A stretch of DNA of 56,313 bases, from positions 1 through 56,313 of the IMG/VR virus record IMGVR_UViG_3300012172_000001. One strand, given 5' to 3'. Of this stretch, positions 9,573 to 54,432 are shown piece after piece. The position numbers and the translations under genes were made by a program. The notes under the pieces were generated by a model. The model had not been told where the DNA came from, made no database searches, and saw only the letters and a list, made by a program, of their open reading frames with translations. Position 1 is the first letter of the stretch, and each line of letters starts with the position of its first letter. This DNA comes from a virus (lineage: Duplodnaviria; Caudoviricetes).

Positions 9573-9574
9573 GC

Positions 9575-9790
9575 CTACGGAACCTGGCAGGTGGCACAGG
9601 CCGAATACGTGCGGCCGTAACTGGCCTGCCGGCTGGCTCGCCGCTCTTGCCGCCGCTGGACGCCCAGCACTTGGCCGGCGCGGGCCTTGGCTCGCTGGAG
9701 CAAGTTGCACAGCGGACCAGCCTCGGCCGAGACTGGGGCGACAAACAACACGCTGGAGATGACCAGCAGGGCGATGGTGAGACGTTTCAT
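9575..9790 (-). CDS. Small secreted protein (71 aa)
   Basis: Signal peptide MKRLTIALLVISSVLFVAPVSAEA; basic core; C-terminal CATC. Confidence 0.6.
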   Translation of the reverse strand: MKRLTIALLVISSVLFVAPVSAEAGPLCNLLQRAKARAGQVLGVQRRQERRASRQASYGRTYSACATCQVP

Positions 9791-9791
9791 T

Positions 9792-9959
9792 TCAACACTT
9801 TCCTTTCAGGCCAGCCGCTTCTACGCGGCGATGCCATTTCGAGTTACCGGACACACATTTGCCAGACTTGCGACGACTGCGGACAAGTCCCTTGCGGGCC
9901 GGGCTGACGGCGACAGACGACGTGAACAAAGAAACCAAAAAATCAATTCCGAGTTTCAT
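9792..9959 (-). CDS. Small basic hypothetical protein (55 aa; below the ORF-track cut-off)
   Basis: MKLGIDFLVSLFTSS...AAGLKGKC; GAGGA upstream; fills the gap in the operon. Confidence 0.4.
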   Translation of the reverse strand: MKLGIDFLVSLFTSSVAVSPARKGLVRSRRKSGKCVSGNSKWHRRVEAAGLKGKC

Positions 9960-9963
9960 TTGG

Positions 9964-10815
9964 CTATTTCCTCAACTTCCACCGCGTGTACTGCCGCGCC
10001 CCGACAACAAAACTCCGATGCGTCCGCGTGCCAACGAGGCCAGCGAACAAACCAACCGCCGTCCGCAAGCCCAACGGGGCACGGGCCTGGATCAATTCAC
10101 GCTTGCGGGCGTCGTCAAGTTCCAAGGCTCGCAGCACGCCGGGGGTCAAATCCTCGCGCTCGACGCGCATAAATCCCGCCTCATGCAACTGCTGGCCGAG
10201 TGCCAAATTGACCCCCGCTTCATGGAGATCGGCGAAGCAAAACGTGCCGCCGGGCTTCAGGACGCGGTAGACTTCGGCGAAGAACTTGGCTCGCGACGGG
10301 TAGCAGTGACTCGATTCGACGTTCACTACGCAATCGAACATCGCATCGTCGTAGGGCAGCGCCAGCGCATCGCCGAGTCTGAATTGCAGATTGAACCCGG
10401 CCTGATGGCGGTTCTGGCAGAAGGCAATCGCCCGCGGCGACAGGTCGCAGCCGCGAGTTGGCCCCGGCCCGCGATAGCGGTGCAGGTACGACAACCCGCC
10501 CCCGCGCCCGCAACCGACTTCCAATAGCGACTTACCGCGCAGGTCCACGCCGGCCGTGACTCGTTCATAGAGCTGAATGCAATAGCGGTCGGGCTCATCG
10601 TCGGCTTTCAATTCGAGCAGCGTTTCATCGTCCGGCCCGGCAAAGCCGTAGTTCATAAACGTCCAGTCGGCGAACGTGAACCCGGCCAAGTACTGATACA
10701 GCCGATTGAAGGCCCACTGCTTGAACCGCGGGAACCATTCGAGGGGATGCGTCCAAAGGAACATCCGCGGCTTGGTGGCCGGGCGTTGAATCGCGATGGT
10801 GCGGAGGGCGGTCAT
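9964..10815 (-). CDS. Class I SAM-dependent O-methyltransferase, Rv2952/Fmt-like (283 aa)
   Basis: FMNYG, RYCIQLY, LLEVGCGRGGG, GDALALPY, VVNVESSHCYP, EVYRVLKPGG motifs; ATG 10815 overlaps the upstream stop. Confidence 0.85.
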   Translation of the reverse strand: MTALRTIAIQRPATKPRMFLWTHPLEWFPRFKQWAFNRLYQYLAGFTFADWTFMNYGFAGPDDETLLELKADDEPDRYCIQLYERVTAGVDLRGKSLLEVGCGRGGGLSYLHRYRGPGPTRGCDLSPRAIAFCQNRHQAGFNLQFRLGDALALPYDDAMFDCVVNVESSHCYPSRAKFFAEVYRVLKPGGTFCFADLHEAGVNLALGQQLHEAGFMRVEREDLTPGVLRALELDDARKRELIQARAPLGLRTAVGLFAGLVGTRTHRSFVVGARQYTRWKLRK

Positions 10816-11873
10816 ACGTTGGGCTTGGTGATGACGCGATAGCGGCCAGCTACGCCGTCGGGTGCGACGACATACCGATAAGTGACGTTGTTCAGCGTGA
10901 GCGACAAGTCGCCACGAATGGCGATACCAGCGGCGAATGTCTCGGCGAAAATACTGCCCGTGATCGGTGGGTTGGTCGGGGTCGGTCCAGGGCCGGGGCC
11001 TGGAATCGGTTCGCCGCCGAAATACGCTCGCTTGCGTGAGAAACTGGTATCGCCCACCCAGCTCGGGCGCTTCGTGGGGCTGCCGATCGACGGGTTCATA
11101 ATCCCGCCGTTGGTGTGCGAGAGGCCGTCGCTGTGCCCCTTGTATTCGTGGGTCAGCAATTCGGCCAGCGTGAACTTGCCGGGGTTGAATCCGTTGTCGA
11201 TCCGCGCCGTGACCGTCTGGTTGCACGTGTTGGGCGTCGGGAAGTAGGCGTAGCCAATGACACTGCCGGGAATTGATTCAAACTTGACATCGTGCTGCGG
11301 ATTGGCAAACGATCCATCTCGCACGTGGCGCACCGCCTGCCCGATCTCCGCTTCCGTCTCCTCGACAAACCGCAGCACTTCATCGAGCATCGCCTTTTGC
11401 GTGGACGAGGCTCGGCTATCGTCGAGCCCCACGACGACACTGTGAACGTCCTTGCGGTTGGGATCGCAGCCGACGGGCCACGATCCGCTGCCGGTGGCTT
11501 GTGCCTCGGCTTGATGAGCGGCCCACGTCTGGTAACTGAGCACGGCCGAATTCAAACCGGGGTGGCCGTAATCGAAGCTGGCGTTGGGCGGCGGAGCATG
11601 GTCGGGCATCGCACACCGCGGCCACTCCATCAGCGCATTCGTTGCCGGACCGCAAAGACCATCGCACACAGCTTCACGGCGATGAAACAAACGAGCCAGC
11701 ACGCCAAAGTTAGCATCCGCTTCCTGCCAGGATTGAATCGCCTGCTGGGCGATGGGGTGATCGACGGCCAGCTTTTCGACGCTTGACCGATCGACGTTGC
11801 GCACGTCGGACTTGGCCGGGTTCCAGAAGTGCCCGTAGCGGTAGGCCAGCAGCAGTTTTTCGGAGTCGTTCAT
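10812..11873 (-). CDS. Matrixin-like (M10/metzincin) zinc metalloprotease with prodomain (353 aa)
   Basis: Cysteine-switch-like PRCAMPD; VIGYAYFP; zinc motif HEYKGHSDGLSH; Met-turn GIMNP. Confidence 0.8.
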   Translation of the reverse strand: MNDSEKLLLAYRYGHFWNPAKSDVRNVDRSSVEKLAVDHPIAQQAIQSWQEADANFGVLARLFHRREAVCDGLCGPATNALMEWPRCAMPDHAPPPNASFDYGHPGLNSAVLSYQTWAAHQAEAQATGSGSWPVGCDPNRKDVHSVVVGLDDSRASSTQKAMLDEVLRFVEETEAEIGQAVRHVRDGSFANPQHDVKFESIPGSVIGYAYFPTPNTCNQTVTARIDNGFNPGKFTLAELLTHEYKGHSDGLSHTNGGIMNPSIGSPTKRPSWVGDTSFSRKRAYFGGEPIPGPGPGPTPTNPPITGSIFAETFAAGIAIRGDLSLTLNNVTYRYVVAPDGVAGRYRVITKPNV

Positions 11874-13171
11874 AGCACGGGCTTGGGCACCGGGCGATAC
11901 TTGCCGCTCCCATCGGGGGCGATGATGTACTGGTATTTGCCGGGCGGCTGATTGGGCGCGACCGTCACTTCGAATCCGCCGCGGATGGCTATGCCGTTGT
12001 CGGCCTGTTCGGCGTGAAGCGTGCCGGCGACGGCCGGACCTGCCGGACCGGGACCAGGTGTAGGGCCAGTGCCCGGAAATCCCTTGGCCCACGGCAGCCA
12101 GGCGTACTCGACATCGGAGAGCCACCACTTGGCTGAACACACCCATGCGCCTTGCGGCTTCGGACCCCATAGATGTTTGGGCCAGTAGGTGTCGGCGCAT
12201 TCGCCGCTCCACCCCGAGCCCCACGTTTGATGGTTGATCAGCGGGAAATCGTCGGCAGCCCAAGTGAGGCGGTGATTATCCGCAAACCACTTCCGGCACT
12301 CCTCGGTGTCGTCGTAAGCGACCGTGCTCTGCATGTGGGCGCCGGTCGAGCCTCTGGTGAACGGCTTGGACCCGCCGCTGGTGCGGACCCCGCCGGCATG
12401 GAGCACGCCGCCGGCCTTCATTACCTTTTTGAAGCCGACATGGTCCCCGTTGTATTGCGTGATCGCGCCGTCCGCGTAGCCGTGCTTGGCCTGGGTGTGC
12501 TCGACCATCCAGCCGGGAATTCCGCGGCTGCACCACTGGCGAGCAACGATCTGTTCGTTCTGGTCGTCGTCCGTGAAATCGACCGTCCCACCAGGCAGCT
12601 CGTACTTCGTCCGAAACGCACAGCCGACCTTGCGAGCGACTGAGGAAATTCCCGAACCGCTCCACCCGTCACTACAGTAGCCGCGGTTCGCGTATTTATA
12701 CCAAGCGGCCGAATGCAAAAAGGTTTCCGAGACGCCCGTGATCGATGGATGCATCACCCGCCAGCCAAACATCGTGGTTTCGTGCTCGGCACAAGAGCAA
12801 TCGACACATGAGCCGTAATCCTGCTCATTGCTGTACGGCTCTGGCCCCTTGCGCCCGCCGGCTTCCCACAATTCCAAAGCGTGCCGGCAGTTGATATGTC
12901 GCTCGCCGTCGCCGTCGGCCAGTTGGCTGGCTACGTCACTAAACAGCTTTTTGGTTCCCGGCGTGTCCCGCTTGAATTCATCGGCCAGGTACTGCGCTGC
13001 TTTTCGCGCCCAAGCCGGCTGATCATCGCGGTCGATAAACGCTCCCACAAATCCAGCCCGATAAGCCGACTCCATGAACTTCGCCTTGTTGCCGAAATCG
13101 GCTAAGCGCGCAAACCTGCCTTCCAGCCGGTTGCTGTCAGGAATGATCGACTGCAAATATGTGTCGCTCAT
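11870..13171 (-). CDS. Papain-like (C1-type) cysteine peptidase (433 aa)
   Basis: EQDYGSCV (oxyanion Gln and catalytic Cys), GAHMQSTVAYDD (His), HQTWGSGW (equivalent of NSWG). Confidence 0.72.
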   Translation of the reverse strand: MSDTYLQSIIPDSNRLEGRFARLADFGNKAKFMESAYRAGFVGAFIDRDDQPAWARKAAQYLADEFKRDTPGTKKLFSDVASQLADGDGERHINCRHALELWEAGGRKGPEPYSNEQDYGSCVDCSCAEHETTMFGWRVMHPSITGVSETFLHSAAWYKYANRGYCSDGWSGSGISSVARKVGCAFRTKYELPGGTVDFTDDDQNEQIVARQWCSRGIPGWMVEHTQAKHGYADGAITQYNGDHVGFKKVMKAGGVLHAGGVRTSGGSKPFTRGSTGAHMQSTVAYDDTEECRKWFADNHRLTWAADDFPLINHQTWGSGWSGECADTYWPKHLWGPKPQGAWVCSAKWWLSDVEYAWLPWAKGFPGTGPTPGPGPAGPAVAGTLHAEQADNGIAIRGGFEVTVAPNQPPGKYQYIIAPDGSGKYRPVPKPVL

Positions 13172-26488: not shown

Positions 26489-26516
26489 ACTTTAGCAAAT
26501 GCTAACAAGCCGTCAA
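26489..26516 (-). promoter_or_regulatory. Candidate sigma70 promoter of the leftward operon with palindromic operator
   Basis: TTGACG-N16-TAAAGT; palindrome TTAGCAAATGCTAA at 26492-26505. Confidence 0.55.
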
Positions 26517-26755
26517 GATGCCTTGGCCATTTTTCTGGCCGCTTTTTCGGAAATAAGTTCCGAGGGCTGAATTTCCAAGGCTTTTGCGAAATCTTCCAGG
26601 GAATTTAGGCCGGGATTTCTATGGCCCGAAAGCATCTGAGAGATAAACGACGCTGTGACTTTCATTCGATGCGCCAGGTCGTCTTGAGACAATCCAAGCG
26701 TGGCCATTCGTTCGCGGACATTGGCCCTAAAAGCGTTCGCCAGTCTTGCCGACAT
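26513..26755 (-). CDS. XRE-family HTH regulator, repressor/Cro-like (80 aa)
   Basis: LSQDDLAHRMKVTASFISQMLSGHRNPGLNSLEDFAKALEI. Confidence 0.9.
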   Translation of the reverse strand: MSARLANAFRANVRERMATLGLSQDDLAHRMKVTASFISQMLSGHRNPGLNSLEDFAKALEIQPSELISEKAARKMAKAS

Positions 26756-26771
26756 ACTTCCCATGCCTTGC

Positions 26772-26799
26772 AGTTTAGCAACTGCTGTAGTAATGTCAA
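26772..26799 (-). promoter_or_regulatory. Candidate promoter of the XRE gene with operator
   Basis: TTGACA-N16-TAAACT; contains TTAGCAACTGCTGT, related to the 26492 palindrome. Confidence 0.55.
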
Positions 26800-26869
26800 A
26801 GGCGCGGCAAAGGCCGGGTCGAACAGGAATCACACAGCGTCGATCCCAACCGGCCCCTGCCGCGTCAAA

Positions 26870-26923
26870 TACACCCAGGAGGGCTCGAACCTCCAACCTT
26901 CGGTTCCGTAGACCGATGCTCTA
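26870..26923 (-). other. attP core candidate: 3' part of a tRNA-Arg(ACG) gene
   Basis: TAGAGC-A-TCGGT-CTACGGA-ACCGA-AGGTT-GGAGG-TTCGAGC-CCTCC-TGGGTGT-A: anticodon arm, T arm and 3' acceptor strand; 5' D-arm missing; about 150 bp upstream of the integrase. Confidence 0.85.
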
Positions 26924-27073: not shown

Positions 27074-27907
27074 TTGAAACGAGCCGCCATGATCGCTGCC
27101 ACGCTGAAAGGCGCACTCAACCACTACACGCTCTATCGAACGCTCGCCCCTGAAACCGTCGCGTGGTATTCCCGCGCGGTGAGCGTCTATTGCACCTGGG
27201 CTGGCGGCGACGTGCCGCTGGCCTCGTTCAACGGGCAGACGATCAGCGAAATGCTCTTGGCTAAACAGCGGGCCGGGCGTTCGGCCTATTACGTCAAGAG
27301 CTTGCGGGGCGGCCTGGTTGCTCTGCTCCGCGAGGTGCGCGGGGATGCGCCGGTAGAGCGGGTCAGGTCGGTCAAAACGCCGCCGCTCGATCCCCACGGC
27401 CTAACGCCGGCAGAAGTCGAAAGGCTGGTCAAGCAATGCGATTCGCTCCCGCCTGAAGCCCGCTGGCGGTATCGACTTATGATCCTGCTCGGCTATTACA
27501 CCGCCCTGGATGCCGCCGACATTTGGCGGCTGGAGCGGAAGCATATCGACCGCCGGGGCTGGATTGCGTTTCGCCGCGGCAAAACCGGATCGCTGATCTT
27601 CGTCGCCATTCCTCCCGAAGTTGTGGCGGAGATCGACCGGCATTGCCCGCGCAAAGGTCCGCTGATTCGCATGGGCGTGAGCAAGGAATGGTTCCGTCGC
27701 GTGATAGCCGGTCTGTTCGCGCGGGCCGGGTTGCAAGGCACGTTCAAGACGCTGCGCAAGACTTCTGCCTCGCTGGTCGAATCAGAACAACCAGGCATGG
27801 GCCATAAACACGCTGGGAACACGCGGGCCATTTTTGAGAAGCATTACGACGTGAGGCGGCTGACGCGAGAGAAGCCGACGATGCCGCCGAAGATAAAGCT
27901 ACCTTGA
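27074..27907 (+). CDS. int: Tyrosine recombinase/integrase with atypical catalytic residues
   Basis: LLGYYTALDAADIWRL (box I), RGKTG, FKTLRKT, HAGNT...FEKHY (box II); adjacent tRNA fragment; probable ATG at 27089. Confidence 0.8.
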   Translation: MKRAAMIAATLKGALNHYTLYRTLAPETVAWYSRAVSVYCTWAGGDVPLASFNGQTISEMLLAKQRAGRSAYYVKSLRGGLVALLREVRGDAPVERVRSVKTPPLDPHGLTPAEVERLVKQCDSLPPEARWRYRLMILLGYYTALDAADIWRLERKHIDRRGWIAFRRGKTGSLIFVAIPPEVVAEIDRHCPRKGPLIRMGVSKEWFRRVIAGLFARAGLQGTFKTLRKTSASLVESEQPGMGHKHAGNTRAIFEKHYDVRRLTREKPTMPPKIKLP

Positions 27908-31159: not shown

Positions 31160-31801
31160 ATGTCCAATCCCGTGTCCGAGGCTCTTGTCGCTGTGTACGT
31201 CAGGGTATCGACGCATTCCCAGAACGAAGCTGGGCAGCGGGAGGCGGTCTCCGCCTGGCTGCGTGGAAACGGGCTCCCTGCGGAGCGGGTGCTGTGGTTC
31301 ACGGATAAGCAGACGGGTGACAACTTGAAGCGGCCTGGTTTTGAGCGTCTGCATAAGGCGATTTTTGACGGGAAGGTGGGAACGGTGGTGGTGTTTAAGC
31401 TGGACCGCCTGAGCCGGAAGCTGAGCGACGGGATTAAGACGCTGTGCGATTGGTGTGAGCGGGGGATTCGGGTGGTAAGTGTCACTCAGCAACTGGACTT
31501 TTCCGGAACTGTCGGAAGGCTGGTGGCGAGCGTGCTCTTCGCGGTGGCGGAGATGGAGCAGGAGACTCGTCGTGAGCGGCAGGCGGTGGGGATCGAGGTC
31601 GCGAAGCGGGCAGGGAAGTACAAAGGACGGAAGCCGGGGACGACGAAGGCCAGTCCCGAGCGGGCTAGGGAGCTGAAGGCGCAGGGGTTCTCGCACGGCG
31701 AGATTGGCAACGCCCTGGGTGTCAGTAAGATGGCGGTGTCGAGGTATTTGAAATATGACGACGAGGCTCGTCTGGAGCGAATGAGAAACCGGGAGTGGTG
31801 A
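31160..31801 (+). CDS. Small serine recombinase (resolvase/invertase family) with C-terminal HTH
   Basis: YVRVST..Q, RPGF, VFKLDRLSR, RERQ..GI..AK..G...GRK, HTH. Confidence 0.95.
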   Translation: MSNPVSEALVAVYVRVSTHSQNEAGQREAVSAWLRGNGLPAERVLWFTDKQTGDNLKRPGFERLHKAIFDGKVGTVVVFKLDRLSRKLSDGIKTLCDWCERGIRVVSVTQQLDFSGTVGRLVASVLFAVAEMEQETRRERQAVGIEVAKRAGKYKGRKPGTTKASPERARELKAQGFSHGEIGNALGVSKMAVSRYLKYDDEARLERMRNREW

Positions 31802-45137: not shown

Positions 45138-45163
45138 TTCCTCTTTTCCGAAAGGAAATGTTC
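45138..45163 (+). repeat. 26-bp leader repeat, copy 1
   Basis: TTCCTCTTTTCCGAAAGGAAATGTTC, identical to 45545-45570. Confidence 0.95.
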
Positions 45164-45544
45164 ATGGACCCGCATAATGTCCACCGCGATCTGTACGAAT
45201 CGGATCACCTGCTGCCGGACCCCGGAAATGGCAGGACGATTCGCGTGGATGGCGACCTGCAAATCTGCGAGATGGTCTCCACCGCCGCTGAGACTCGGAC
45301 GCTGGCTGCTCCGACCAAGCCGGGAATCCGGTTCGCCCTGCGCCTAATGACGGATGGCGGCGACATCCTCGTAACCGCCGAGAACGGATTCAACGTCGAA
45401 GGCGATACGGTCGCGCGTTTCGCCGACGCCAGCGATCTGCTGCAACTCATGTCGGTGGAGTACACCGCGCCCACTGCTACTGCCAGGGCGACTTACCGCT
45501 GGCAGGTCATGGAAGGCAACGTCGGCGTTTCGATTTCTGCTTAG
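45164..45544 (+). CDS. Small structural protein, paralogue A (no Ser-rich tail)
   Basis: DPGN, DLQICEMVS, ETRTLA.PTKPGIRF, TDGG, FADASD, EGNVG shared with the next gene. Confidence 0.75.
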   Translation: MDPHNVHRDLYESDHLLPDPGNGRTIRVDGDLQICEMVSTAAETRTLAAPTKPGIRFALRLMTDGGDILVTAENGFNVEGDTVARFADASDLLQLMSVEYTAPTATARATYRWQVMEGNVGVSISA

Positions 45545-45572: not shown

Positions 45573-46070
45573 ATGTCAACTTCCCTCAACATCCACCATC
45601 ATCTTTATCGCGGGCCGAAGATCCTCACCGATCCAGGCAACGCGGGGATCATTCGCGCCAACGCGGACTTGCAGATTTGCGAGATGGTGTCCGGCGCTTC
45701 CGGTGAAACCAGAACCCTCGCCACGCCCACGAAGCCAGGAATCCGCTTCACGCTTCGGTTAAAGACGGACGGAGGCGGCGATGTGGTTGTAACGGCTCCC
45801 GCCGGCCTGAACGTGGCCCTGGAAACGCAGGCGACGTTTGCGGACGCAAGCGATTTCCTGTCGCTGATTTCGGTCACGATCTCCGCTGGGTCACACCGCT
45901 GGGAAGTTTTGGAGGGCAATGTCGGGACGGTGGTTTCGTCCACGTCGCCGTCCAGTTCCCCATCCACGTCGCCATCGGCTTCCACGTCCAGTTCGCCGTC
46001 GAGTTCCGTGTCGAGTTCGCCGTCGAGTTCTCCGTCCGCGTCGGTTTCGAGTTCTCCTTCGGCAACGTAG
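45573..46070 (+). CDS. Small structural protein, paralogue B, with mucin-like Ser/Pro/Thr tail (165 aa)
   Basis: Same domain as paralogue A plus about 44 aa of SSTSPSSSPS... ending SSSPSAT. Confidence 0.8.
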   Translation: MSTSLNIHHHLYRGPKILTDPGNAGIIRANADLQICEMVSGASGETRTLATPTKPGIRFTLRLKTDGGGDVVVTAPAGLNVALETQATFADASDFLSLISVTISAGSHRWEVLEGNVGTVVSSTSPSSSPSTSPSASTSSSPSSSVSSSPSSSPSASVSSSPSAT

Positions 46071-46072
46071 CC

Positions 46073-46807
46073 ATGCCAGACCTGACCATCATTTTCCTGA
46101 CAACAAACGCCCTTCCTTCCAGGTGGGAGAAAGTTCACCTGGAGCATCTGCTGCGCGCAGCAGACGGGCGGCCGATGGTGGTCATTTCCAAGGAGGGGAT
46201 GGAACTGGACCGGCCGAACACGACGTACCTCATTCAAGAGGGGCCGTTCTGCGCCTGGAACGTGTACCGACAGCTTTTGCGCGGGGCGAAGCTGGCCGAA
46301 ACGAAGTACGTGGCGGTCGCGGAGGACGACACGCTCTATCCCGCGAGGCACTTCAACGACTTCCGACCGCCGGATGATGCGGTGGCCTATGATATGTCGC
46401 GTTGGTCCGTATTTTCTTGGGCGCAGAGGCCGTTCTTCTCGGCGATTCGGAAGTACGGCAACTTCACGATGATCGGGCCGCGGCAGTTGGTGATCGACGC
46501 CCTGGAGGAGCGCGAGAAGAAGTACCCCAACGGGAAGGACTACACAGGGGAGATCGGGCGGTCGGAAGTGGAGCGGATTCTGGGGGTCAAACGGAACAAG
46601 CTCGTGGAGTGGCACTGCATCGAGCCGATGGTGAACCTCTGCCACCCGCAAGGGCTTTCGCCTACCTACGTCAACACGCCGGGCCTGGAACGGAAGCCGG
46701 GAGAACTGAAAGCGTGGGATATTCCGGTGTGGGGCAAAGCCTCGGACATCGCAGCCATTTACAACCAGGGGGTAGCGGAAGATGCTCGATCTTCGGAAAC
46801 ACCTTGA
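46073..46807 (+). CDS. GT-A fold glycosyltransferase (244 aa)
   Basis: LTIIFLT beta1; GAKLAETKYVAVAEDDTLY (DxD-like motif). Confidence 0.72.
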   Translation: MPDLTIIFLTTNALPSRWEKVHLEHLLRAADGRPMVVISKEGMELDRPNTTYLIQEGPFCAWNVYRQLLRGAKLAETKYVAVAEDDTLYPARHFNDFRPPDDAVAYDMSRWSVFSWAQRPFFSAIRKYGNFTMIGPRQLVIDALEEREKKYPNGKDYTGEIGRSEVERILGVKRNKLVEWHCIEPMVNLCHPQGLSPTYVNTPGLERKPGELKAWDIPVWGKASDIAAIYNQGVAEDARSSETP

Positions 46808-47408
46808 GAAGCACTTTCGCTTCATGGGCGGCAAGGACAACCTACCGCTCTTGGCGACTCCCCTCTCGCGCCGGGAAGGCGGCCGGGTGGCCCTGGCGCG
46901 AACGATGCGCGACATGGGGCTTGTGAAAGCTGTCGAAGTGGGCTGCCGCTACGGGGCTTCCGCGAAGCTCTGGCGCGAGCATATCCCAGACTTGGACATC
47001 ACCTGCATCGACCCGTACCGGGCCTATCACCGGGTTTCGCAGGAGCGGCAGGACTTGATCTACGCCGGGGCACAGGAAAACGCCGCGAACTATGGGTTCA
47101 AGATTCTCCGCAAGCCCAGCCTCGACGCGGTGGACGATTTCGCGGACGGTTCGCTCGATTGGGTCCATATCGACGGGGACCATTCGTTCGACGCCGCGGT
47201 GCGTGACATCATCCAGTGGGCGGCGAAGGTCCGCGAGGGTGGGCTGGTACTGGTTCACGATTATTGCTCATTCGCCATGTCGGGCGTCATTCCGGCGGTG
47301 GACTCCTACACGCACTGCCACTGGATTGACCCGTGGTACGTGACGCGGGATATGGAACCGACCGCCTTCTGGCAGCGGGGAGCGGAAAGGGCGGGGCTGG
47401 GATCGTGA
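46782..47408 (+). CDS. Class I SAM methyltransferase, Methyltransf_24-like (208 aa)
   Basis: VEVGCRYGAS, CIDPY, SLDWVHIDGDHSF, VREGGLVLVHDY. Confidence 0.88.
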   Translation: MLDLRKHLEKHFRFMGGKDNLPLLATPLSRREGGRVALARTMRDMGLVKAVEVGCRYGASAKLWREHIPDLDITCIDPYRAYHRVSQERQDLIYAGAQENAANYGFKILRKPSLDAVDDFADGSLDWVHIDGDHSFDAAVRDIIQWAAKVREGGLVLVHDYCSFAMSGVIPAVDSYTHCHWIDPWYVTRDMEPTAFWQRGAERAGLGS

Positions 47409-48157
47409 CGATCAAATTGAGCATTGTCATTCCGGTATTCCAGTCGCACGAAGTCGTGCGCCGGCAACTGCTGCACTTTTACAACATCGGACTGCCTGGT
47501 GACACAGAACTGATTCTGGTGGACGACGGCAGTGACCCGCCGATTGAGAATCACTTCAGTCAGCTCGCGAAGATTCACCGAACCAACGACAGGCGACCGT
47601 GGACCTGGGCGCTGGCTCGGAACGCAGGGGCGCGACTAGCGACTGGCAAATACTTATTGATGTACGACCTGGATCACATTGCCGACCGCAAGCTGCTGGA
47701 CTTCGTGAGGGGATTCACCGGCATTAAAGTGCAGTTCAGCCGTGAGTTCGGCATCCTCGACGAACGCGGGCGATTAACCCAAGACCGGGACGTGCTCGCG
47801 GAGTACGGCCTGCCGAAGAATCAGGGATTGAAGCTCGGCCCACTCCCAAACAACTTCGCCATGCGGCGGGATGTGTTCTGGGAACTGGGTGGCTACCGGG
47901 AAGACCTCGTAGAGAAGCCTTACCCACAAGGCGAGGACCGGGCCTTTCGCAGCGCCTGGCGGACGTATGAGCTGAAGCACGGTGGCGAAGGTTCTATGGT
48001 CTGCGCGCACCGTCCGAAGATGCTCATGTTTCCAAACGGCAAGTACGTCGGCGACGTGGACGCCGACCCGAAAGGGCTGTTCCACAAGCTGACGCGCAAG
48101 ACCAAGCGAAATTTCTGGCATCAAGAGCAAGAGAGGAAAGAGCGTGTCGAAAGCTAA
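47405..48157 (+). CDS. GT2-type glycosyltransferase with GT7-C-like C-terminal motif (250 aa)
   Basis: LSIVIPVF, ELILVDDGSD, ARNAGA, YDLDH, FWELGGYREDL...GEDR. Confidence 0.88.
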   Translation: MTIKLSIVIPVFQSHEVVRRQLLHFYNIGLPGDTELILVDDGSDPPIENHFSQLAKIHRTNDRRPWTWALARNAGARLATGKYLLMYDLDHIADRKLLDFVRGFTGIKVQFSREFGILDERGRLTQDRDVLAEYGLPKNQGLKLGPLPNNFAMRRDVFWELGGYREDLVEKPYPQGEDRAFRSAWRTYELKHGGEGSMVCAHRPKMLMFPNGKYVGDVDADPKGLFHKLTRKTKRNFWHQEQERKERVES

Positions 48158-49085
48158 GCTTCTGTCCGTGATTGTGCCGGGGCGCAATGAGGAATTCATG
48201 CGGCACACAGTCGAGGACGTGCTTGCGCACAGTCGCGAGGACACCGAGGTAATCGCAATCAACGATGGCTATTGGTGCAATCCGCCACTGGTTCAGAACC
48301 CACGATTGCAGGTTGTCCACTTTGGTGAGTCAGTAGGTCAGCGAGCGGCGACGAATTACGGTGCAGCGCTCAGCCGGGCGAAATATATCTGCAAGCTCGA
48401 TGCCCACTGCGCCGTGGAGGACGGCTTCGACGTGAAGCTGATCGCGGACATGCAGCCCGACATGACGATGATTCCATCGATGCACCGCCTGCACGTCTTC
48501 GACTGGCACTGCAACGGCTGCGGCGAGAGGGAGTATCAGGGAACCCGCCCCAAGGAATGCAAGGAGTGCAATGGGACGGATTTTACGATGGCGATGGTCT
48601 GGAATCCGCGGTTTGAGTATCCCGCCACGACCGTCTGGCGATTCGACAAGGCGCTGCACTTTCAATACTGGCGCGGGTACAGGCACACCGACGCATACAA
48701 AAAGCAGGAACCGAGCGGCGTTGTCGAGACGATGAGTTGCATCGGGGCCTGTTTCCTGATGGAACGCGAGCGGTTCTGGAAACTTGGCGGCATGGACGAG
48801 GGGCACGGTTCCTGGGGGCAGTACGGAACCGAACTGGCCTGCAAGGCATGGCTCTCCGGGGGCCGGATGGTCACTTCGCTCAAGACCTGGTTCGCCCACC
48901 TGTTCCGCACCGGGAACTTCGGCAAGGACGGCGAATCATCCTGGCCTTACCCGATCAACCAGAGGCAGATCGACGCAGCGCGGGCGTACTCGCGCGAACT
49001 ATGGCTAAATGGCAAGTGGCCCCACGCAGAGCGTCCTCTGTCCTGGTTGATCGAACATTTCCGTCCCATTCCTGATTGGCATTAA
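48144..49085 (+). CDS. Glycosyltransferase resembling polypeptide GalNAc-transferases (GT27-like/GT2), with Zn-ribbon insert (313 aa)
   Basis: SVIVPGRNE, KLDAHC, GACFLMERERFWKLGGMDEG...WG...ELACKAWLSGG...AHLFR...PY. Confidence 0.85.
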   Translation: MSKAKLLSVIVPGRNEEFMRHTVEDVLAHSREDTEVIAINDGYWCNPPLVQNPRLQVVHFGESVGQRAATNYGAALSRAKYICKLDAHCAVEDGFDVKLIADMQPDMTMIPSMHRLHVFDWHCNGCGEREYQGTRPKECKECNGTDFTMAMVWNPRFEYPATTVWRFDKALHFQYWRGYRHTDAYKKQEPSGVVETMSCIGACFLMERERFWKLGGMDEGHGSWGQYGTELACKAWLSGGRMVTSLKTWFAHLFRTGNFGKDGESSWPYPINQRQIDAARAYSRELWLNGKWPHAERPLSWLIEHFRPIPDWH

Positions 49086-49791: not shown

Positions 49792-51341
49792 TGCCAACCA
49801 AGGACATCCTATTCCCGATGCGGGGAGTGGTTCGACGCGAATCGCTTCGATCCACTCCCGATTCGCGCGGACCGTGGCCGAGTCCGTGGGCAGTCAATGT
49901 CCGCGTGGAAGATGCTCTCGACCGTCGCATGAGAGGCGGCAGTCGTCCTGGTCTGACCAAGTTCGTCAACGACGACCTGGGGACCACGATCTCCGATATG
50001 GTTTCGATCAACGTATCGAGCGCAGCCGGCGGGGCCAGCGAAGTCCTGCTCGTGCTGGTGGATTCTTCGATCAAGGTCGTCGAGAACGGCACGGTAACAG
50101 CGCTGGTCGCTTACCTCACGAACGAAGCCGGCCAGACCATCACCAACGAAGACGAAGTGCCGATCACCGTTGGCGAAGGCTCTGTTCCTGCCACTGGGTT
50201 TCTCGTCGCGGGCCAGCAGAAGGTGTTCGCGGTGACGACCAGCGGAGTCACCAAGATCGACCCCAAGACCGGGCAGGTGGATAGCCTGGCGGCCAGTGCC
50301 GGCACGATTCCCACGAGTTGCACGTTCGGGGCGATTTACCGCGACCGGCTCTGTCTCTCCGGGCAGGATAACGCCATCTACATGAGCCGGCAGGGGGTTT
50401 ACGGCGACTTCGACTTCGGGGTTGATTTCTCTGACCAGCAACGGGCGATTCCATTTCAACTGGCGCTGAGCGCCGACGTCGGGGCGAGGCCCACGGCGAT
50501 GATTCCGTGCATGGACGCCTACCTGATCTGCGCCACGGCCCGCAGTCTGTGGGTGGTTCAGGGCGACCCGACCAGCGGAGCTTTGCGCAGGATTTCCGAA
50601 ACGGTGGGGATCATCGGTTCTAAAGCCTGGGTCAAGGTGGATGGCACGATCATCTTTCTGTCCGAAGACGGGCTGTATCAGGTGCAGGCTGATGGCTCCG
50701 GCCTGACGCCCCTGACGCTGAACGCGATTCCCGACGAACTGCGGGACATCGACACGAGCACGACGACAGTTTCGTTGGGTTGGGAGCAGGACCGGCGAGC
50801 ATTTCACATCTATCTCCGCACCGCAGGCGGAAGTGACACCCACTGGGTTTACGAGACCGTTCCGCAAGCGTTCTGGCCAACGTGGCTTCAGGACAACCAT
50901 TCTCCCCGCGTGGTCTGCCAGCACGACGGCGAACTGCTGCTGGCCGGTGGGGACGGTTACATTCGCAAAGTCACTGGAGACAACGACGATGGCGCGGCGA
51001 TTACATCGCACGTCGTCTTCGGCCCGATCCGCCTGGGAATCAAAGGGTTCTATGGCCGCATGATAAATCTGCACGCCAGCCTTGCGGCCGGTGGCGGACA
51101 GGTCAACTGGCGCATTCTGACGGGGGACACGGCGGAAGAAGCGGCCGATAACGCGAAGACGGCCATCGAGTCCTTCCGCAGCGGCGCGAGCTATTCGAGC
51201 CTGGTAAAACAGAGCGGCAACTGGAAGGCCGGGCGGTCGATCATGGTCTATCCGCGAGTGCGGGGAATCTGGTGTTGTCTGTGGTTGCAATCCACGGACA
51301 AGTGGGCCTTTGAAAGCATGATGTTCGATACGACGAGTTGA
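49788..51341 (+). CDS. Putative tail nozzle/tubular protein (P22 gp10/T7 gp12-like beta-propeller, 517 aa)
   Basis: NVR...RPGL N-terminus, YRDRL, IYMS, GIIG, IFLSEDGLY, WVY, DGYIR pattern; position in the tail module. Confidence 0.65.
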   Translation: MMPTKDILFPMRGVVRRESLRSTPDSRGPWPSPWAVNVRVEDALDRRMRGGSRPGLTKFVNDDLGTTISDMVSINVSSAAGGASEVLLVLVDSSIKVVENGTVTALVAYLTNEAGQTITNEDEVPITVGEGSVPATGFLVAGQQKVFAVTTSGVTKIDPKTGQVDSLAASAGTIPTSCTFGAIYRDRLCLSGQDNAIYMSRQGVYGDFDFGVDFSDQQRAIPFQLALSADVGARPTAMIPCMDAYLICATARSLWVVQGDPTSGALRRISETVGIIGSKAWVKVDGTIIFLSEDGLYQVQADGSGLTPLTLNAIPDELRDIDTSTTTVSLGWEQDRRAFHIYLRTAGGSDTHWVYETVPQAFWPTWLQDNHSPRVVCQHDGELLLAGGDGYIRKVTGDNDDGAAITSHVVFGPIRLGIKGFYGRMINLHASLAAGGGQVNWRILTGDTAEEAADNAKTAIESFRSGASYSSLVKQSGNWKAGRSIMVYPRVRGIWCCLWLQSTDKWAFESMMFDTTS

Positions 51342-51342
51342 A

Positions 51343-52140
51343 ATGGCACGATCAGGACAATGGCGCGGCGGTGACGACGGGGTAGTTCCGGGCGGCGTGG
51401 TGTCTCAGTCGAGCAGCCCGTCCGCTTCGCCTTCCACGTCGCCTTCGGCTTCCGTGTCAGCCTCTCCCTCAACTTCGCCTTCGTCTTCGGCATCCGTAAC
51501 GCCATCCTCGTCACCGTCTCGTTCGCCGTCGTCCTCCAAATCCTCGTCGCCATCGGTTTCACGATCAAGTTCGCCTTCGCATTCGCCCTCAGCCTCCAGG
51601 TCAAGCAGTCCGTCGCGCTCGGCTTCCTCGTCACCGTCAGCGTCCGCGTCGGTATCGCCTTCAGGCACGCCGTCCAGTTCTACGTCGTCGTCTCTCTCCG
51701 CAAGCCCGTCGCACAGCCCTTCAGCGTCACCTTCGGCGAGTTCATCGAGCACTCCGTCGCCTTCCTCATCGCGTTCCAGCAGCCCGTCGAAAAGCACGTC
51801 CGCTTCGCCGTCTGCCACGGCGTCCAGCAGCCCGTCCGCGTCATCGTCACCCTCTGGCTCAGTTTCCAGCAGTCCGTCCACGTCACGCTCGGCGTCGGTG
51901 TCGAGTTCGCCGTCGAGCAGTCCGTCTCCTTCAGCCTCGGTATCCTCGTCTCCTTCGGGAACGCCATCGTCCAGTCCTTCAATATCTTCGTCGGTGTCGA
52001 GCACGCCTTCCGCCAGCCCGTCCATATCACCCTCCACGTCGCCATCGACTTCAGTTTCGGCCTCGCCATCGACTTCAGTTTCGGCCTCGCCATCGAGCAC
52101 TCCATCGGCGTCGGCGTCGAGCAGCCCATCCGCAACGTAG
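51343..52140 (+). CDS. Mucin-like serine-rich repeat protein (265 aa)
   Basis: After about 20 aa the sequence is almost entirely alternating S-X (X = S, P, A, T, V, R); ends SSSPSAT; all six Ser codons used. Confidence 0.75.
   Translation: MARSGQWRGGDDGVVPGGVVSQSSSPSASPSTSPSASVSASPSTSPSSSASVTPSSSPSRSPSSSKSSSPSVSRSSSPSHSPSASRSSSPSRSASSSPSASASVSPSGTPSSSTSSSLSASPSHSPSASPSASSSSTPSPSSSRSSSPSKSTSASPSATASSSPSASSSPSGSVSSSPSTSRSASVSSSPSSSPSPSASVSSSPSGTPSSSPSISSSVSSTPSASPSISPSTSPSTSVSASPSTSVSASPSSTPSASASSSPSAT
52039..52096 (+). repeat. 24-bp tandem repeat within the mucin-like gene
   Basis: TCGCCATCGACTTCAGTTTCGGCC twice plus a partial third copy. Confidence 0.85.
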
Positions 52141-52152
52141 GAGCACGAACAG

Positions 52153-54432
52153 ATGCCAAAGTTCAGCGAATTTGTAGGGTCGCTCACGGTCGATACGATC
52201 GGCGGTTCCGAGAAAATCCCCGTCATCGACACGACGCCATTTTACGTGACTCCCGCTCTGCTGTTGACGTACATCAACGCCGCTCAAGTCGCGGCCACTG
52301 CCGAGACACCGACGACCGGGGACATTCTGCACGGGGACCGGGCAGGGACGATCAAGACGTTCGCCTTGGACGACGTGGCCGATTACGCCCTGGAACGGGC
52401 ATTTGATTCGACCGTCGTTGACTCCATCGTGACCGGCGATCTGGTGGTGATTGAGCGTTCTGGCGTGGCGAAGACGATCACGGCCGACGACCTGCAAACC
52501 TTCGTACTTGATGGGATTCAGGCAGACGTGCTCGACCTGTCGGGGCTTGCTGCGGCCACACTGGGAGCGACTGATCTGTTCGTCGTGTGCCAGACGACGA
52601 CGCCGAAACAGGTCTCGCTGGAGGACTTGGAAACGAAGCTCTGGACGGACTTCGCTACCTACGTCGCCGCCCTGACAGAAAACACCGCGGTAGTCGATGG
52701 CGACGTGCTCTACTCGATCCAGGGCGGGGTTCCGAAGTACGTGAACGCAGATACCCTGGCTGCTTACTTCCTGGCAGAAATCGGGGCGGCGGTTATCGAC
52801 TCCGCCTGGGATGCCAGCGTGGTCGATCCCGCTCTAAGTACGGACGTGATGGTGTGTCAGAGGTCGGACGTGCAGAAGACCGTCACGGTGGACACCGTTT
52901 CTGATTTCGTGCTGGCGGCACTGGGGGCCAGTTCCGCAGTCAGCCCGGTTGCGGCCAGCGACAAGTTTACGCTCTACCGCAGTTCCGTCGCCAAGACGGC
53001 TGACATTGCCGACATCGTGGCCTACGTTCTCACTCAAGCCTGGAGCCAAACCAGCGTTGGAACGATCAACACTGGCGACGAATTGGTGATCGGCCGCAGC
53101 GAAGTGAGCAAGACGACCACGGTGGACGCCTTGGCTACGTTCGTATTGGACGGAGTGCAAGCGGACGTGCTGGACATTTCCGGTTTGGATACAGCAACTC
53201 TAGGAGCGACCGACAACTATTTGGTGGTGCAATCCGGCGTCGGCAAAAAGACCACGCTGACGGCCTTGGAGACGAAGTTAAACGCGGACTTCGCCACCTA
53301 CGTCGCGGGCCTGTCTGATACTGGGACGCTCCTCGCCACTGACAAGTTCTACATCCTCGTCTCAGGCGCTCCGAAGTATTGCACCGGCCTGGAAATCGCC
53401 ACCTATGTTGAGGCGACGATGTGGGGCGCAAGCGCTGCCGCATCAGTCGCCGCCACCGACACGTTCTTGATCGACCAAAGCGGCACGAAGAAGGAAGCCG
53501 CTATCAGTCAGTTGCAGACATTCCTACTGACTGGCCTGCAAGCGGACGTGCTCGATATTTCGGGGCTCGACTCCGCCACGGTGGAGGCCGCCGACGATCT
53601 GCTGGTCTGCCAGTCGGGCGTGCCGATGAAGGCGACGGTCGATGACGTGGGAGAAGTGATCCTGGCGGGCGCGGCGACCTACATCGAAACGCTTTCCCAG
53701 GCGGCCCTGGCCGATACCGACAAGCTGCTTGTATCGCAGGGCGGGGTGGCAACGTACACAGCGCTCAGCGCGCTGGCGGATTACATCGTCGCTGCGAGCA
53801 CTGAACCGTCATGGACGACCGTTTCCGGTACGAAATACACGGCCACGCCAGCGAGCACGTCCAGCGTGACCTTCTCCGACACCAGCGACCTCGCCGTAGG
53901 AAGGCCGGTGCGCTACACCTACAACGGGACAACCTATTACGGCATCATCACGGCCGTCTCAGCCAATGCCTCGATGACCGTGGCCGGCGCTCCACTGGAT
54001 GTAGGCCACGACCTCACGGCTTTGGAAATCGGAACCCCGGCTCAAGTGGTTGCGATGGACCTGAAGGTTGCCGGAACCTACGCCGACAACGCCGAGGACA
54101 TTCTTGCCGCAGAGGGGAATCAGTATGTTCGCTGGCGAAGGTCAGCCGCTTATCTCGTGGCGATTTCCGCCACGCACAAGACGGCGGACACCGGCGCGGC
54201 TCAGCCGAAGCTGAACATGAAGGTGGCCGGAAACCTCGTATCCACGCAAGACAGTAACGCGGGGTTGCAGCTTTCGACTGCCGGGGCCTGGGTGGACGGC
54301 TCGGCGGTGGCCATCTCCACCTCGAATTACGACGTGGCTTGGAGCGACGCGATTGAACTGCGCTGCACCGCCCCAGGGACCAATGGGGATGCCTTGGACC
54401 TGAGCGCGTGCTTACTTTTCGTACTGGTGTAA
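52153..54432 (+). CDS. Repetitive fibre-like structural protein (759 aa)
   Basis: Repeats of about 40 aa (D.L/F.V....K..T...L); QADVLD(L/I)SGL occurs three times; distinct beta-rich C-terminal domains. Confidence 0.7.
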   Translation: MPKFSEFVGSLTVDTIGGSEKIPVIDTTPFYVTPALLLTYINAAQVAATAETPTTGDILHGDRAGTIKTFALDDVADYALERAFDSTVVDSIVTGDLVVIERSGVAKTITADDLQTFVLDGIQADVLDLSGLAAATLGATDLFVVCQTTTPKQVSLEDLETKLWTDFATYVAALTENTAVVDGDVLYSIQGGVPKYVNADTLAAYFLAEIGAAVIDSAWDASVVDPALSTDVMVCQRSDVQKTVTVDTVSDFVLAALGASSAVSPVAASDKFTLYRSSVAKTADIADIVAYVLTQAWSQTSVGTINTGDELVIGRSEVSKTTTVDALATFVLDGVQADVLDISGLDTATLGATDNYLVVQSGVGKKTTLTALETKLNADFATYVAGLSDTGTLLATDKFYILVSGAPKYCTGLEIATYVEATMWGASAAASVAATDTFLIDQSGTKKEAAISQLQTFLLTGLQADVLDISGLDSATVEAADDLLVCQSGVPMKATVDDVGEVILAGAATYIETLSQAALADTDKLLVSQGGVATYTALSALADYIVAASTEPSWTTVSGTKYTATPASTSSVTFSDTSDLAVGRPVRYTYNGTTYYGIITAVSANASMTVAGAPLDVGHDLTALEIGTPAQVVAMDLKVAGTYADNAEDILAAEGNQYVRWRRSAAYLVAISATHKTADTGAAQPKLNMKVAGNLVSTQDSNAGLQLSTAGAWVDGSAVAISTSNYDVAWSDAIELRCTAPGTNGDALDLSACLLFVLV

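Follow-up and report, generated by a model that had tools for sequence, protein, structure and literature searches.

A GT27-like glycosyltransferase family of uncultured phages, encoded beside serine-repeat proteins, as a candidate initiator of virion O-glycosylation

Serine-rich repeat glycoproteins of Gram-positive bacteria (Fap1, GspB and PsrP) are glycosylated in the cytoplasm by the soluble enzymes GtfA and GtfB. The polypeptide GalNAc-transferases of family GT27 are treated as an animal and apicomplexan family in the portions of the literature at hand (PMC4202792, PMC3417536). As regards phages, the accessible parts of the sources describe virion glycosylation for the mycobacteriophages Che8, Corndog and Myrna (Freeman et al. 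2023, as cited in PMC12619734, PMC12363180, PMC11256854 and PMC13313380), and the glycosylation of C-terminal extensions of mycobacteriophage capsid and tail-tube proteins (PMC12619734, PMC12363180). Here, we analyse a 313-residue glycosyltransferase resembling GT27 that is encoded in IMG/VR virus record IMGVR_UViG_3300012172_000001, together with its gene cassette and the serine-repeat proteins encoded beside it. The window, i.e. the whole stretch of DNA analysed, is the complete genome of an uncultured phage, 56,313 bp long and bounded by direct terminal repeats. On balance, we favour the view that this enzyme starts the O-glycosylation of the phage's own virion tails of the (Ser-X)n type, and we consider it highly probable that the cassette glycosylates virion proteins, whatever the order in which its enzymes act. 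The enzyme family and the acceptor type are not described for phages in the searchable literature, where phage virion glycosylation itself is already known; no description of GT27-like phage enzymes was found there, and subscription papers or supplements may hold one.

The placement of the enzyme was assessed by sequence and by fold. Against the Protein Data Bank (PDB), the single sequence gave 23 matches with phmmer, the top seven of which were GalNAc-transferases (E 1.5e-8 to 2.3e-5). With the family profile (A2), built from 48 sequences, the first 15 of 21 PDB matches were GalNAc-transferases (E 2.2e-17 to 4.6e-10), aligned over both the nucleotide-binding and the Gal/GalNAc-T halves; the best generic GT2 entries (3bcv, 5hea and 6p61, E 1.4e-8 to 4.7e-8) were matched over the N-terminal half only. 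An AlphaFold2 model of the enzyme was obtained with a mean pLDDT of 92.6 and a pTM of 0.91. All 30 Foldseek matches listed (ranks 1-48) were GalNAc-transferase entries. In VIA-align, run exhaustively on 48,161 representative chains, mouse GalNAc-T1 came first (Z 27.1, root-mean-square deviation 2.8 Å, 268 residues aligned, 23 % identity), followed by Toxoplasma GalNAc-T3 (TgGalNAc-T3, Z 25.0) and then, after a gap, by a Leptospira glycosyltransferase, the K4 chondroitin polymerase (K4CP), WrtF, SpsA, TarS/TarP and others at Z <=18.3. Folds of the GT2 type (SpsA, TarP/TarS, K4CP, cellulose and hyaluronan synthases) thus scored Z 14-18, as against 25-27 for GT27.

A first-pass annotation of the window, made from the sequence without database searches, had proposed a GT27-type likeness and named a grouping with polysaccharide GT2 enzymes as the result that would speak against it. 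The likeness is upheld: family profile and fold comparison both put the enzyme beside GT27 catalytic domains, and it does not group with the polysaccharide enzymes, since the profile, Foldseek and VIA-align all rank GalNAc-transferases ahead of GT2. The family is the closest known relative of the catalytic domain of the eukaryotic polypeptide GalNAc-transferases. As the lectin and the anchor are absent and the sugar-contacting motif is changed, we describe it as a GT27-like sister family and have not filed it as a member of GT27.

The motifs quoted in the first-pass annotation all lie in the protein: SVIVPGRNE (residues 8-16), KLDAHC (84-89), CNGC (123-126), CKEC (139-142), GACFLMERERFWKLGGMDEG (201-220), WGQYGTELACKAWLSGG (224-240), AHLFR (251-255) and PY (268-269). 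In Pfam, Glycos_transf_2 (PF00535) covers residues 8-108 only (E 5e-12, 46.4 bits vs a cut-off of 23.3), i.e. the nucleotide-binding half, and eukaryotic GalNAc-transferases share this same half. The only other Pfam match is a sub-threshold one to Glyco_transf_7C; the protein is a single domain, and the ricin-type lectin previously reported as missing is indeed absent. A Ricin domain was also found in none of the 15 longer relatives scanned. The enzyme had further been described as soluble and devoid of a transmembrane anchor, which agrees with the lack of any hydrophobic segment (highest 19-residue Kyte-Doolittle mean, 0.78); in the model, the chain starts with the first beta-strand of the fold. 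An AGGA stands 8-9 nt upstream of the start at 48144, and a length of 313 aa is shared by many homologues.

Conservation was evaluated on 186 full-length domains of the family, 111 from close relatives and 75 from representatives at 50 % identity. Besides the two DxH residues listed in Table 1, H252 and E16 are invariant in all 186 domains and R255 is kept in 185. In the profile alignment (chain 8v9q), D86, H88 and H252 align with D209, H211 and H344 of mouse GalNAc-T1, which the available part of the source gives as Mn2+-related residues (PMC4202792). D86, H88 and H252 are the presumed members of a conserved metal-ligand triad, as predicted from these alignments. Further along the chain, the model loses confidence after the third His, mean pLDDT dropping to 72 and 58 within residues 251-270, a position occupied in GalNAc-T2 by the flexible catalytic loop.

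At the Gal/GalNAc-T motif, the GT27 consensus is WGGENxE. The phage family keeps W224, G225, E230 and K234 near-invariant, with Q at position 226 and Y, F, M or Q at position 227, and the replacement of WGGE by WGQY that had been read from the enzyme is correct. Judging only from this change, WGGE to WGQ[Y/F/M/Q] across the family, the donor may be other than UDP-GalNAc. The catalytic-base position of inverting GT7 enzymes presumably corresponds to G228 of the enzyme, and a glycine at this position would fit a retaining, GT27-like mechanism.

Between two beta-strands lies a 20-residue insert of the form CxxC...CxxC, the CNGC...CKEC element of the first-pass annotation, the four Cys of which are kept in all 111 close relatives. 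Among the 75 representatives, four Cys are found in 46, three in the region in 15 and none in 11, most of these 11 missing the insert itself. From this Cys pattern, the insert may bind zinc.

Compared with characterised GT27 enzymes (GalNAc-T1, T2, T4, T7, T9, T10 and T12, and Toxoplasma GalNAc-T3), the phage enzyme shares a GT-A domain alignable over both halves and the DxH motif with a distal His, the loop that follows the third His being of low confidence in the phage model. The region equivalent to the Gal/GalNAc-T motif aligns as well, with Q and Y/F/M/Q in place of G and E at positions 226 and 227. GT27 enzymes act on Ser/Thr/Pro-rich repeat acceptors, and acceptors of this kind are suggested for the phage enzyme by its neighbouring genes. 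In contrast, identity is only 17-23 %, the phage enzyme has no ricin-type lectin, type II anchor or secretory-pathway setting, it carries WGQ[Y/F/M/Q] and the four-Cys insert, and it presumably acts in the bacterial cytoplasm.

The candidate acceptors were sought by a six-frame scan of the 56 kb, in which Ser/Pro-rich windows occurred in two open reading frames (ORFs) only, both within 3 kb of the enzyme gene. In the 265-aa protein, all 122 positions of one register, over 244 residues, are Ser (114) or Thr (8), the other register being mainly Pro, Ser, Ala and Val. In the 165-aa protein, the tail is shorter: 23 of 25 positions of one register (92 %) are Ser or Thr over the last 50 residues, and the gene contains a tandem repeat at 45937-46054. 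This tail is kept in homologues (e.g. in loci L003, L005, L006, L008 and L009), and its C-terminus is the very peptide that the first-pass annotation had proposed as an acceptor. The 165-aa protein and the 128-aa protein encoded before it are tandem paralogues that differ chiefly in the serine tail, present in the second copy only, and many related loci retain the pair. For this pair, a protein-atlas lead points to a C-terminal beta-sandwich domain of phage depolymerases (score 0.95, with the family in 33 % of cluster members). On the opposite strand, two Asp/Gly/Glu-rich ORFs overlie the serine-repeat genes (45605-46915, 436 aa, and 51405-52232, 275 aa, both on the - strand); they look like mirror-frame artefacts of the repeats and not genes.

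The 265-aa ORF begins 1 nt past the stop codon of the 517-aa tail-like protein (TGA A ATG; 51339-51345). This split form is found in the present phage and its closest kin (L002, L003 and L004), whereas in L007, L009 and L010 the 517-aa-type protein and the repeat form a single in-frame ORF of 741-808 aa. The fused ORFs of these relatives imply that the repeat originally ends a virion protein as its C-terminal appendage and became detached in the present phage and its closest kin. We considered and rejected a programmed +1 frameshift that would fuse the 517-aa protein with the repeat ORF: the sequence AGT TGA AAT G shows no evident slippery site, and the two ORFs are therefore treated as two genes.

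Serine repeats accompany the enzyme well beyond the window. Across 14 related IMG/VR loci, the order serine-tail protein, 244-aa protein, methyltransferase, GT2, GT27-like enzyme and tail protein is conserved, and convincing serine-repeat ORFs on the + strand are present in 12 of them, L012 and L014 being the exceptions over the parts examined. A wider set of 80 enzyme-bearing loci (48-90 % identity, overlapping the 14-locus set) was then compared with 80 control loci centred on TerL, from unrelated phages and none with the enzyme; mean GC content was 0.515 and 0.517, respectively. A strict SP-repeat ORF was found in 61 of the 80 enzyme loci vs 9 of the 80 controls, and an SP-repeat stretch of at least 60 aa in 49 vs 1. 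Repeat residues amounted to 24,591 in 1.21 Mb of enzyme loci, as against 441 in 1.01 Mb of controls. With 30-aa windows, a Ser plus Thr fraction of at least 0.6 was reached in 50 enzyme loci vs 5 controls, and of at least 0.7 in 27 vs 2. The nearest + strand repeat ORF lies at a median of 2.0 kb from the enzyme gene, 45 of 60 being within 3 kb. The 108 non-repeat flanks of the repeats fell into 66 BLASTP clusters, and such diverse, unrelated carriers weaken the objection that enzyme and repeats are simply inherited together from a shared ancestor.

The repeats themselves come in several flavours, TPSHTVS in L024 and L026 and a TSTSTA type in L040 and L042, and some are very long: L093 has a 2,192-aa ORF (4732-11307) of which about 1,700 residues are repeat-rich. 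This variety, together with the very long repeat proteins, suggests that the acceptor tag diversifies quickly. In the distant phage locus L015, two GT27-like copies occur (2013-2675 and 6001-6933, 48 % and 30 % identical to the query), adjoining two long serine-repeat ORFs.

With the serine-rich repeat glycoproteins, the phage system has in common candidate acceptor tracts carrying Ser (or Thr) at every second residue, as counted above for the 265-aa protein and the 165-aa tail. The machinery differs: Pfam scans of 68 window ORFs revealed no GT-B (GT4) enzyme of the GtfA/GtfB type and no accessory Sec system. The presumed initiator is a GT-A enzyme, and the carrier is a phage particle instead of a cell-wall adhesin.

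The family is widespread among uncultured viruses. A word-index search yielded 3,305 relatives, the best 120 of which are 67-90 % identical to the enzyme, and an exhaustive search of 1.84 billion cluster representatives (50 % identity clusters) gave 1,616 matches at E <=1e-3, 605 of them at E <=1e-10 and 229 at E <=1e-30. A profile scan of IMG/VR confirmed at least 656 of 686 candidate stretches. On the other hand, tblastn of the enzyme against 50,697 GenBank phage records gave no match at E <=1e-5, and the GT2 neighbour gave 7 weak matches only. Scanning bacterial and archaeal genomes with single-protein patterns produced one 35-residue match in a Myxococcales metagenome-assembled genome (E 3e-4) and no prophage copy, a null that does not show absence because such patterns catch only close relatives. 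One NCBI-sourced relative (P0064) bears the name 'hypothetical protein'. Among distant relatives, P0121, P0122 and P0124 are single chains of 1,200-1,260 residues that fuse GT27-like, GT2, GT2 and Methyltransf_24 domains. Other distant relatives (in the set P0121, P0122, P0124, P0141 and P0189) carry an inserted intein (Hint/LAGLIDADG) or precede a GIY-YIG/NUMOD3 homing endonuclease.

In the window, the enzyme gene is the last of a tightly packed run in which genes overlap or abut (Table 1). The longest ORF of the GT2 gene starts at 47333; its likely start is the GTG at 47405, within a GTGA that overlaps the upstream stop, and GT2 homologues align from residue 25-27 in most loci. No transmembrane segment was detected in any of the four cassette enzymes, and none of the four had a match in PADLOC; every NCBIfam match was far below cut-off. 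Between 44500 and 52500, a simple consensus scan found 1 promoter-like site vs 1.9 expected from shuffles, i.e. no excess, and 11 terminator-like sites vs 6.5 expected, several of them within the cassette, to which we give no weight. In the 80-locus set, the enzyme is accompanied by Methyltransf_24 in 63 loci, by the 244-aa protein in 59 and by GT2 in 36.

The 244-aa protein has no Pfam, PHROG or NCBIfam match, and a profile search of the PDB returned nothing meaningful. Its best structural matches reach Z of about 13 and are spread over IspD, GlmU, SpsA and other folds. It bears an EDD motif of which E84 and D86 are invariant and D85 is present in at least 90 % of sequences. According to its model, it may act either as a third transferase or as a nucleotidyltransferase, two kinds that the fold search did not tell apart.

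Table 1. Positions of the cassette, its neighbours and the enzyme's main sequence elements in the window
Feature	Position	Strand	Basis
DUF2341 + Kelch beta-propeller protein of the virion module, 654 aa	42799-44763	+	PHROG 'virion structural protein', E 3.7e-17
128-aa protein, 60 % identical paralogue of the 165-aa protein, without serine tail	45158-45544	+	Pairwise alignment
165-aa protein with C-terminal (Ser-X)n tail, candidate acceptor	45573-46070	+	Tail at about 45936-46067
244-aa phage-only protein, GT-A/nucleotidyltransferase fold	46073-46807	+	AlphaFold2 pLDDT 94.0
Methyltransf_24 methyltransferase, 208 aa, presumed sugar O-methyltransferase	46782-47408	+	PF13578, E 3.2e-18
Second glycosyltransferase (GT2)	47405-48157	+	Pfam Glycos_transf_2, E 7.7e-12
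GT27-like soluble GT-A glycosyltransferase, 313 aa, GTG start	48144-49085	+	ORF, Pfam, PDB profile, AlphaFold2 model
DxH motif D86-A87-H88, presumed Mn2+ ligands	48399-48407	+	D86 and H88 invariant in 186/186
Four-Cys insert (C123, C126, C139, C142), presumed zinc ribbon	48510-48569	+	Cys conservation
Gal/GalNAc-T-motif region, residues 201-240, WGQYGTE for WGGENxE	48744-48863	+	Aligns with GalNAc-T1, T10 and others
H252-L-F-R255, third presumed Mn2+ ligand, ahead of a low-confidence loop	48897-48908	+	Alignment, conservation
Tail-like virion protein, 517 aa	49788-51341	+	phrog_376 'tail protein', E 7.6e-6
265-aa protein, almost all (Ser-X)n, candidate acceptor	51343-52140	+	Register count; repeat at about 51409-52137

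As far as the accessible parts of the sources go, Che8-type mycobacteriophages likewise encode soluble transferases, with a Methyltransf_24 domain among them, that presumably act on virion proteins at C-terminal extensions; Che8 gp108 matches PF13578 at E 3.7e-11 and TylF at E 5.8e-10. The window proteins also carry C-terminal extensions, here serine repeats. Nevertheless, the enzymes differ: the best BLASTP match between gp108-110 and the four window enzymes has an E value of 0.057, the A2 and A3 hidden Markov models find nothing in Che8, and the Che8 transferases are a GT2, a weak GT2 and a GT25, gp110 being the Glyco_transf_25 protein. Moreover, the window cassette is located inside the tail module and its candidate acceptors are long strict (Ser-X)n tracts, unlike the capsid and tail-tube ends reported in the parts of the mycobacteriophage sources at hand. 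We thus regard the phage cassette as analogous to mycobacteriophage virion glycosylation, with unrelated transferases.

The proposed course of events is as follows. During infection, the cytoplasmic enzyme would bind a host-made nucleotide sugar via Mn2+ held by D86, H88 and H252, and would move the first sugar onto serines of the (Ser-X)n tails, i.e. those of the products of 45573-46070 and 51343-52140, the latter presumably belonging with the 517-aa tail protein. Lengthening of the glycan would fall to GT2 and possibly to the 244-aa protein, and its methylation to the Methyltransf_24 enzyme. The decorated proteins would then assemble into the tail apparatus, so that the particle would gain a mucin-like glycosylated brush.

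The first-pass annotation had already called the enzyme a peptide O-glycosyltransferase. The genomic context strengthens this reading through the conserved operon beside (Ser-X)n proteins and the enriched pairing; the transfer to Ser/Thr itself and the order in which the enzymes would act are inferred. Several observations weigh against the enzyme as initiator on such repeats. The evidence base is wholly computational, and likeness to GT27 is no proof that the acceptor is a peptide. The Pfam match to Glyco_transf_7C (residues 197-242) reaches 19.0 bits, under the cut-off of 23, and the sugar-contacting WGGE is not conserved in the family. Any of the three GT-A-type proteins may act first. Incorporation of the long repeat into the virion is uncertain because it is encoded by an ORF separate from that of its presumed carrier. 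Regarding the survey, a Ser plus Thr fraction of at least 0.5 in a 30-aa window is reached in 70 of 80 enzyme loci and also in 43 of 80 controls; this threshold does not discriminate and was not used as evidence. The strict SP-repeat ORF is missing from 19 of the 80 enzyme loci: 8 of these have other Ser/Thr repeats (e.g. of the TPSHTVS or TSTSTA types) and 11 have none, and while the repeat-free loci are mostly short, L060 is repeat-free despite a flank of about 9.4-9.8 kb on each side. Finally, the 80 loci are mutually related and the controls are head-gene neighbourhoods (TerL) and not tail ones, so that the enrichment is not a clean probability. A complex prediction for the enzyme with residues 105-165 of the 165-aa protein (score 0.00, mark 0.32) speaks neither way.

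Alternatively, the enzyme would extend a sugar already attached to the serine tails, the 244-aa protein or GT2 being the initiator. This division of labour, in which the cassette still glycosylates the tails, is an unlikely alternative. The three GT-A-type proteins in one operon leave room for it, as does the 244-aa protein, which is phage-specific, conserves E84/D85/D86 and stands alongside the enzyme in 59 of 80 loci. In the enzyme, WGGE, which contacts GalNAc, is not kept, and the Gal/GalNAc-T motif is common to GT7 enzymes, which act on glycans. Yet the nearest solved relatives of the enzyme, by a margin of 7-9 Z units, act on polypeptides; the 244-aa protein is equally close to nucleotidyltransferases and to glycosyltransferases (Z of about 13 for both), and GT2 is missing from 44 of the 80 loci.

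A cassette that modifies a host envelope glycan (polysaccharide, teichoic acid or lipopolysaccharide), for instance to block superinfection, with the repeats as unrelated neighbours, appears improbable. Such a role could be read from the Glycos_transf_2 match of the N-terminal half, from weak NCBIfam matches to polysaccharide synthases (e.g. PgaC, E 1.2e-7, far below cut-off) and from the source names of some relatives, which include 'involved in cell wall biosynthesis'; serotype-changing phage transferases are moreover known, according to the accessible part of PMC12619734. However, no cassette enzyme has a membrane segment, no flippase, polymerase or lipid-carrier enzyme turned up in the Pfam scans of 68 window ORFs, and the cassette lies within the virion module and not by lysogeny genes. 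The pairing with serine repeats (61 vs 9 loci) would also be left unexplained. Glycosylation of modified phage DNA bases as a means of evading restriction is very improbable: phage glycosyltransferases often hypermodify DNA (PMC12619734, in its available part, citing Pyle et al. 2024) and the genome encodes DNA methyltransferase-like proteins, but the Pfam scans of 68 window ORFs turned up neither a hydroxymethylase (thymidylate-synthase-like) nor another base-modifying enzyme, the cassette belongs to the structural and not the replication module, and the fold is closest to the protein-acting GT27.

In the rest of the genome, the structural module, on the + strand, encodes a TerL-like protein (about 29 % identity to those of Rhizobium and Sasha-type phages), an SU10-type portal, a podovirus-type major capsid protein, the Kelch/DUF2341 protein and tail-like proteins; the glycosyltransferase cassette sits within this virion/tail-gene module, and not in the replication/recombination module (Erf-like annealing protein, 5'-3' exonuclease, helicase and DNA methyltransferase). 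No tRNA genes were found in the window. At 3798-9572 (+), a 1,924-aa ORF is without Pfam or PHROG matches; given the terminal repeats of the genome, it may be a continuation of the tail or injection module, which extends past the right end of the window. At 9964-11226 (-) lies a second methyltransferase (Methyltransf_11/25, E 2.6e-21), in a region where long ORFs overlap (10812-12263 on the - strand, 9859-10527 on the + strand) and gene calls are ambiguous. Additionally, a Cro/CI-type helix-turn-helix protein (26513-26896, -), a weak sub-threshold Phage_integrase match (27074-27907, +, E 1.7e-4) and a resolvase/invertase-type serine recombinase immediately upstream of TerL (31160-31801, +) hint at a temperate lifestyle or one with an invertible segment.

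Returning to the enzyme as initiator on the phage's own serine tails, the closest known relative of the GT27 catalytic domain is common in uncultured phages and travels with mucin-like serine repeats. Phage virion glycosylation is documented, in the portions of the sources at hand, for few mycobacteriophages only and with unrelated enzymes. In its fullest form, our proposal is that the enzyme is the founding example of a large phage-borne sister family of GT27, i.e. a minimal, lectin-less, soluble polypeptide O-glycosyltransferase with a zinc-ribbon insert, which would build a dense glycan brush on 'phage mucins' of the (Ser-X)n type borne by dozens of unrelated virion proteins as fusions; this whole picture is offered tentatively, as possible and short of probable. 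If it is true, a small soluble enzyme and a defined peptide tag would become available for biochemical work, and the 313-residue enzyme with its portable serine-repeat tag would make a simple tool for bacterial glycoengineering. Many environmental phages would be glycan-coated, with consequences for adsorption, stability and recognition. The initiation of protein O-glycosylation by GT27-type enzymes would then not be a eukaryotic invention, and a lineage of prokaryotic viruses would become testable as an origin of mucin-type O-glycosylation.

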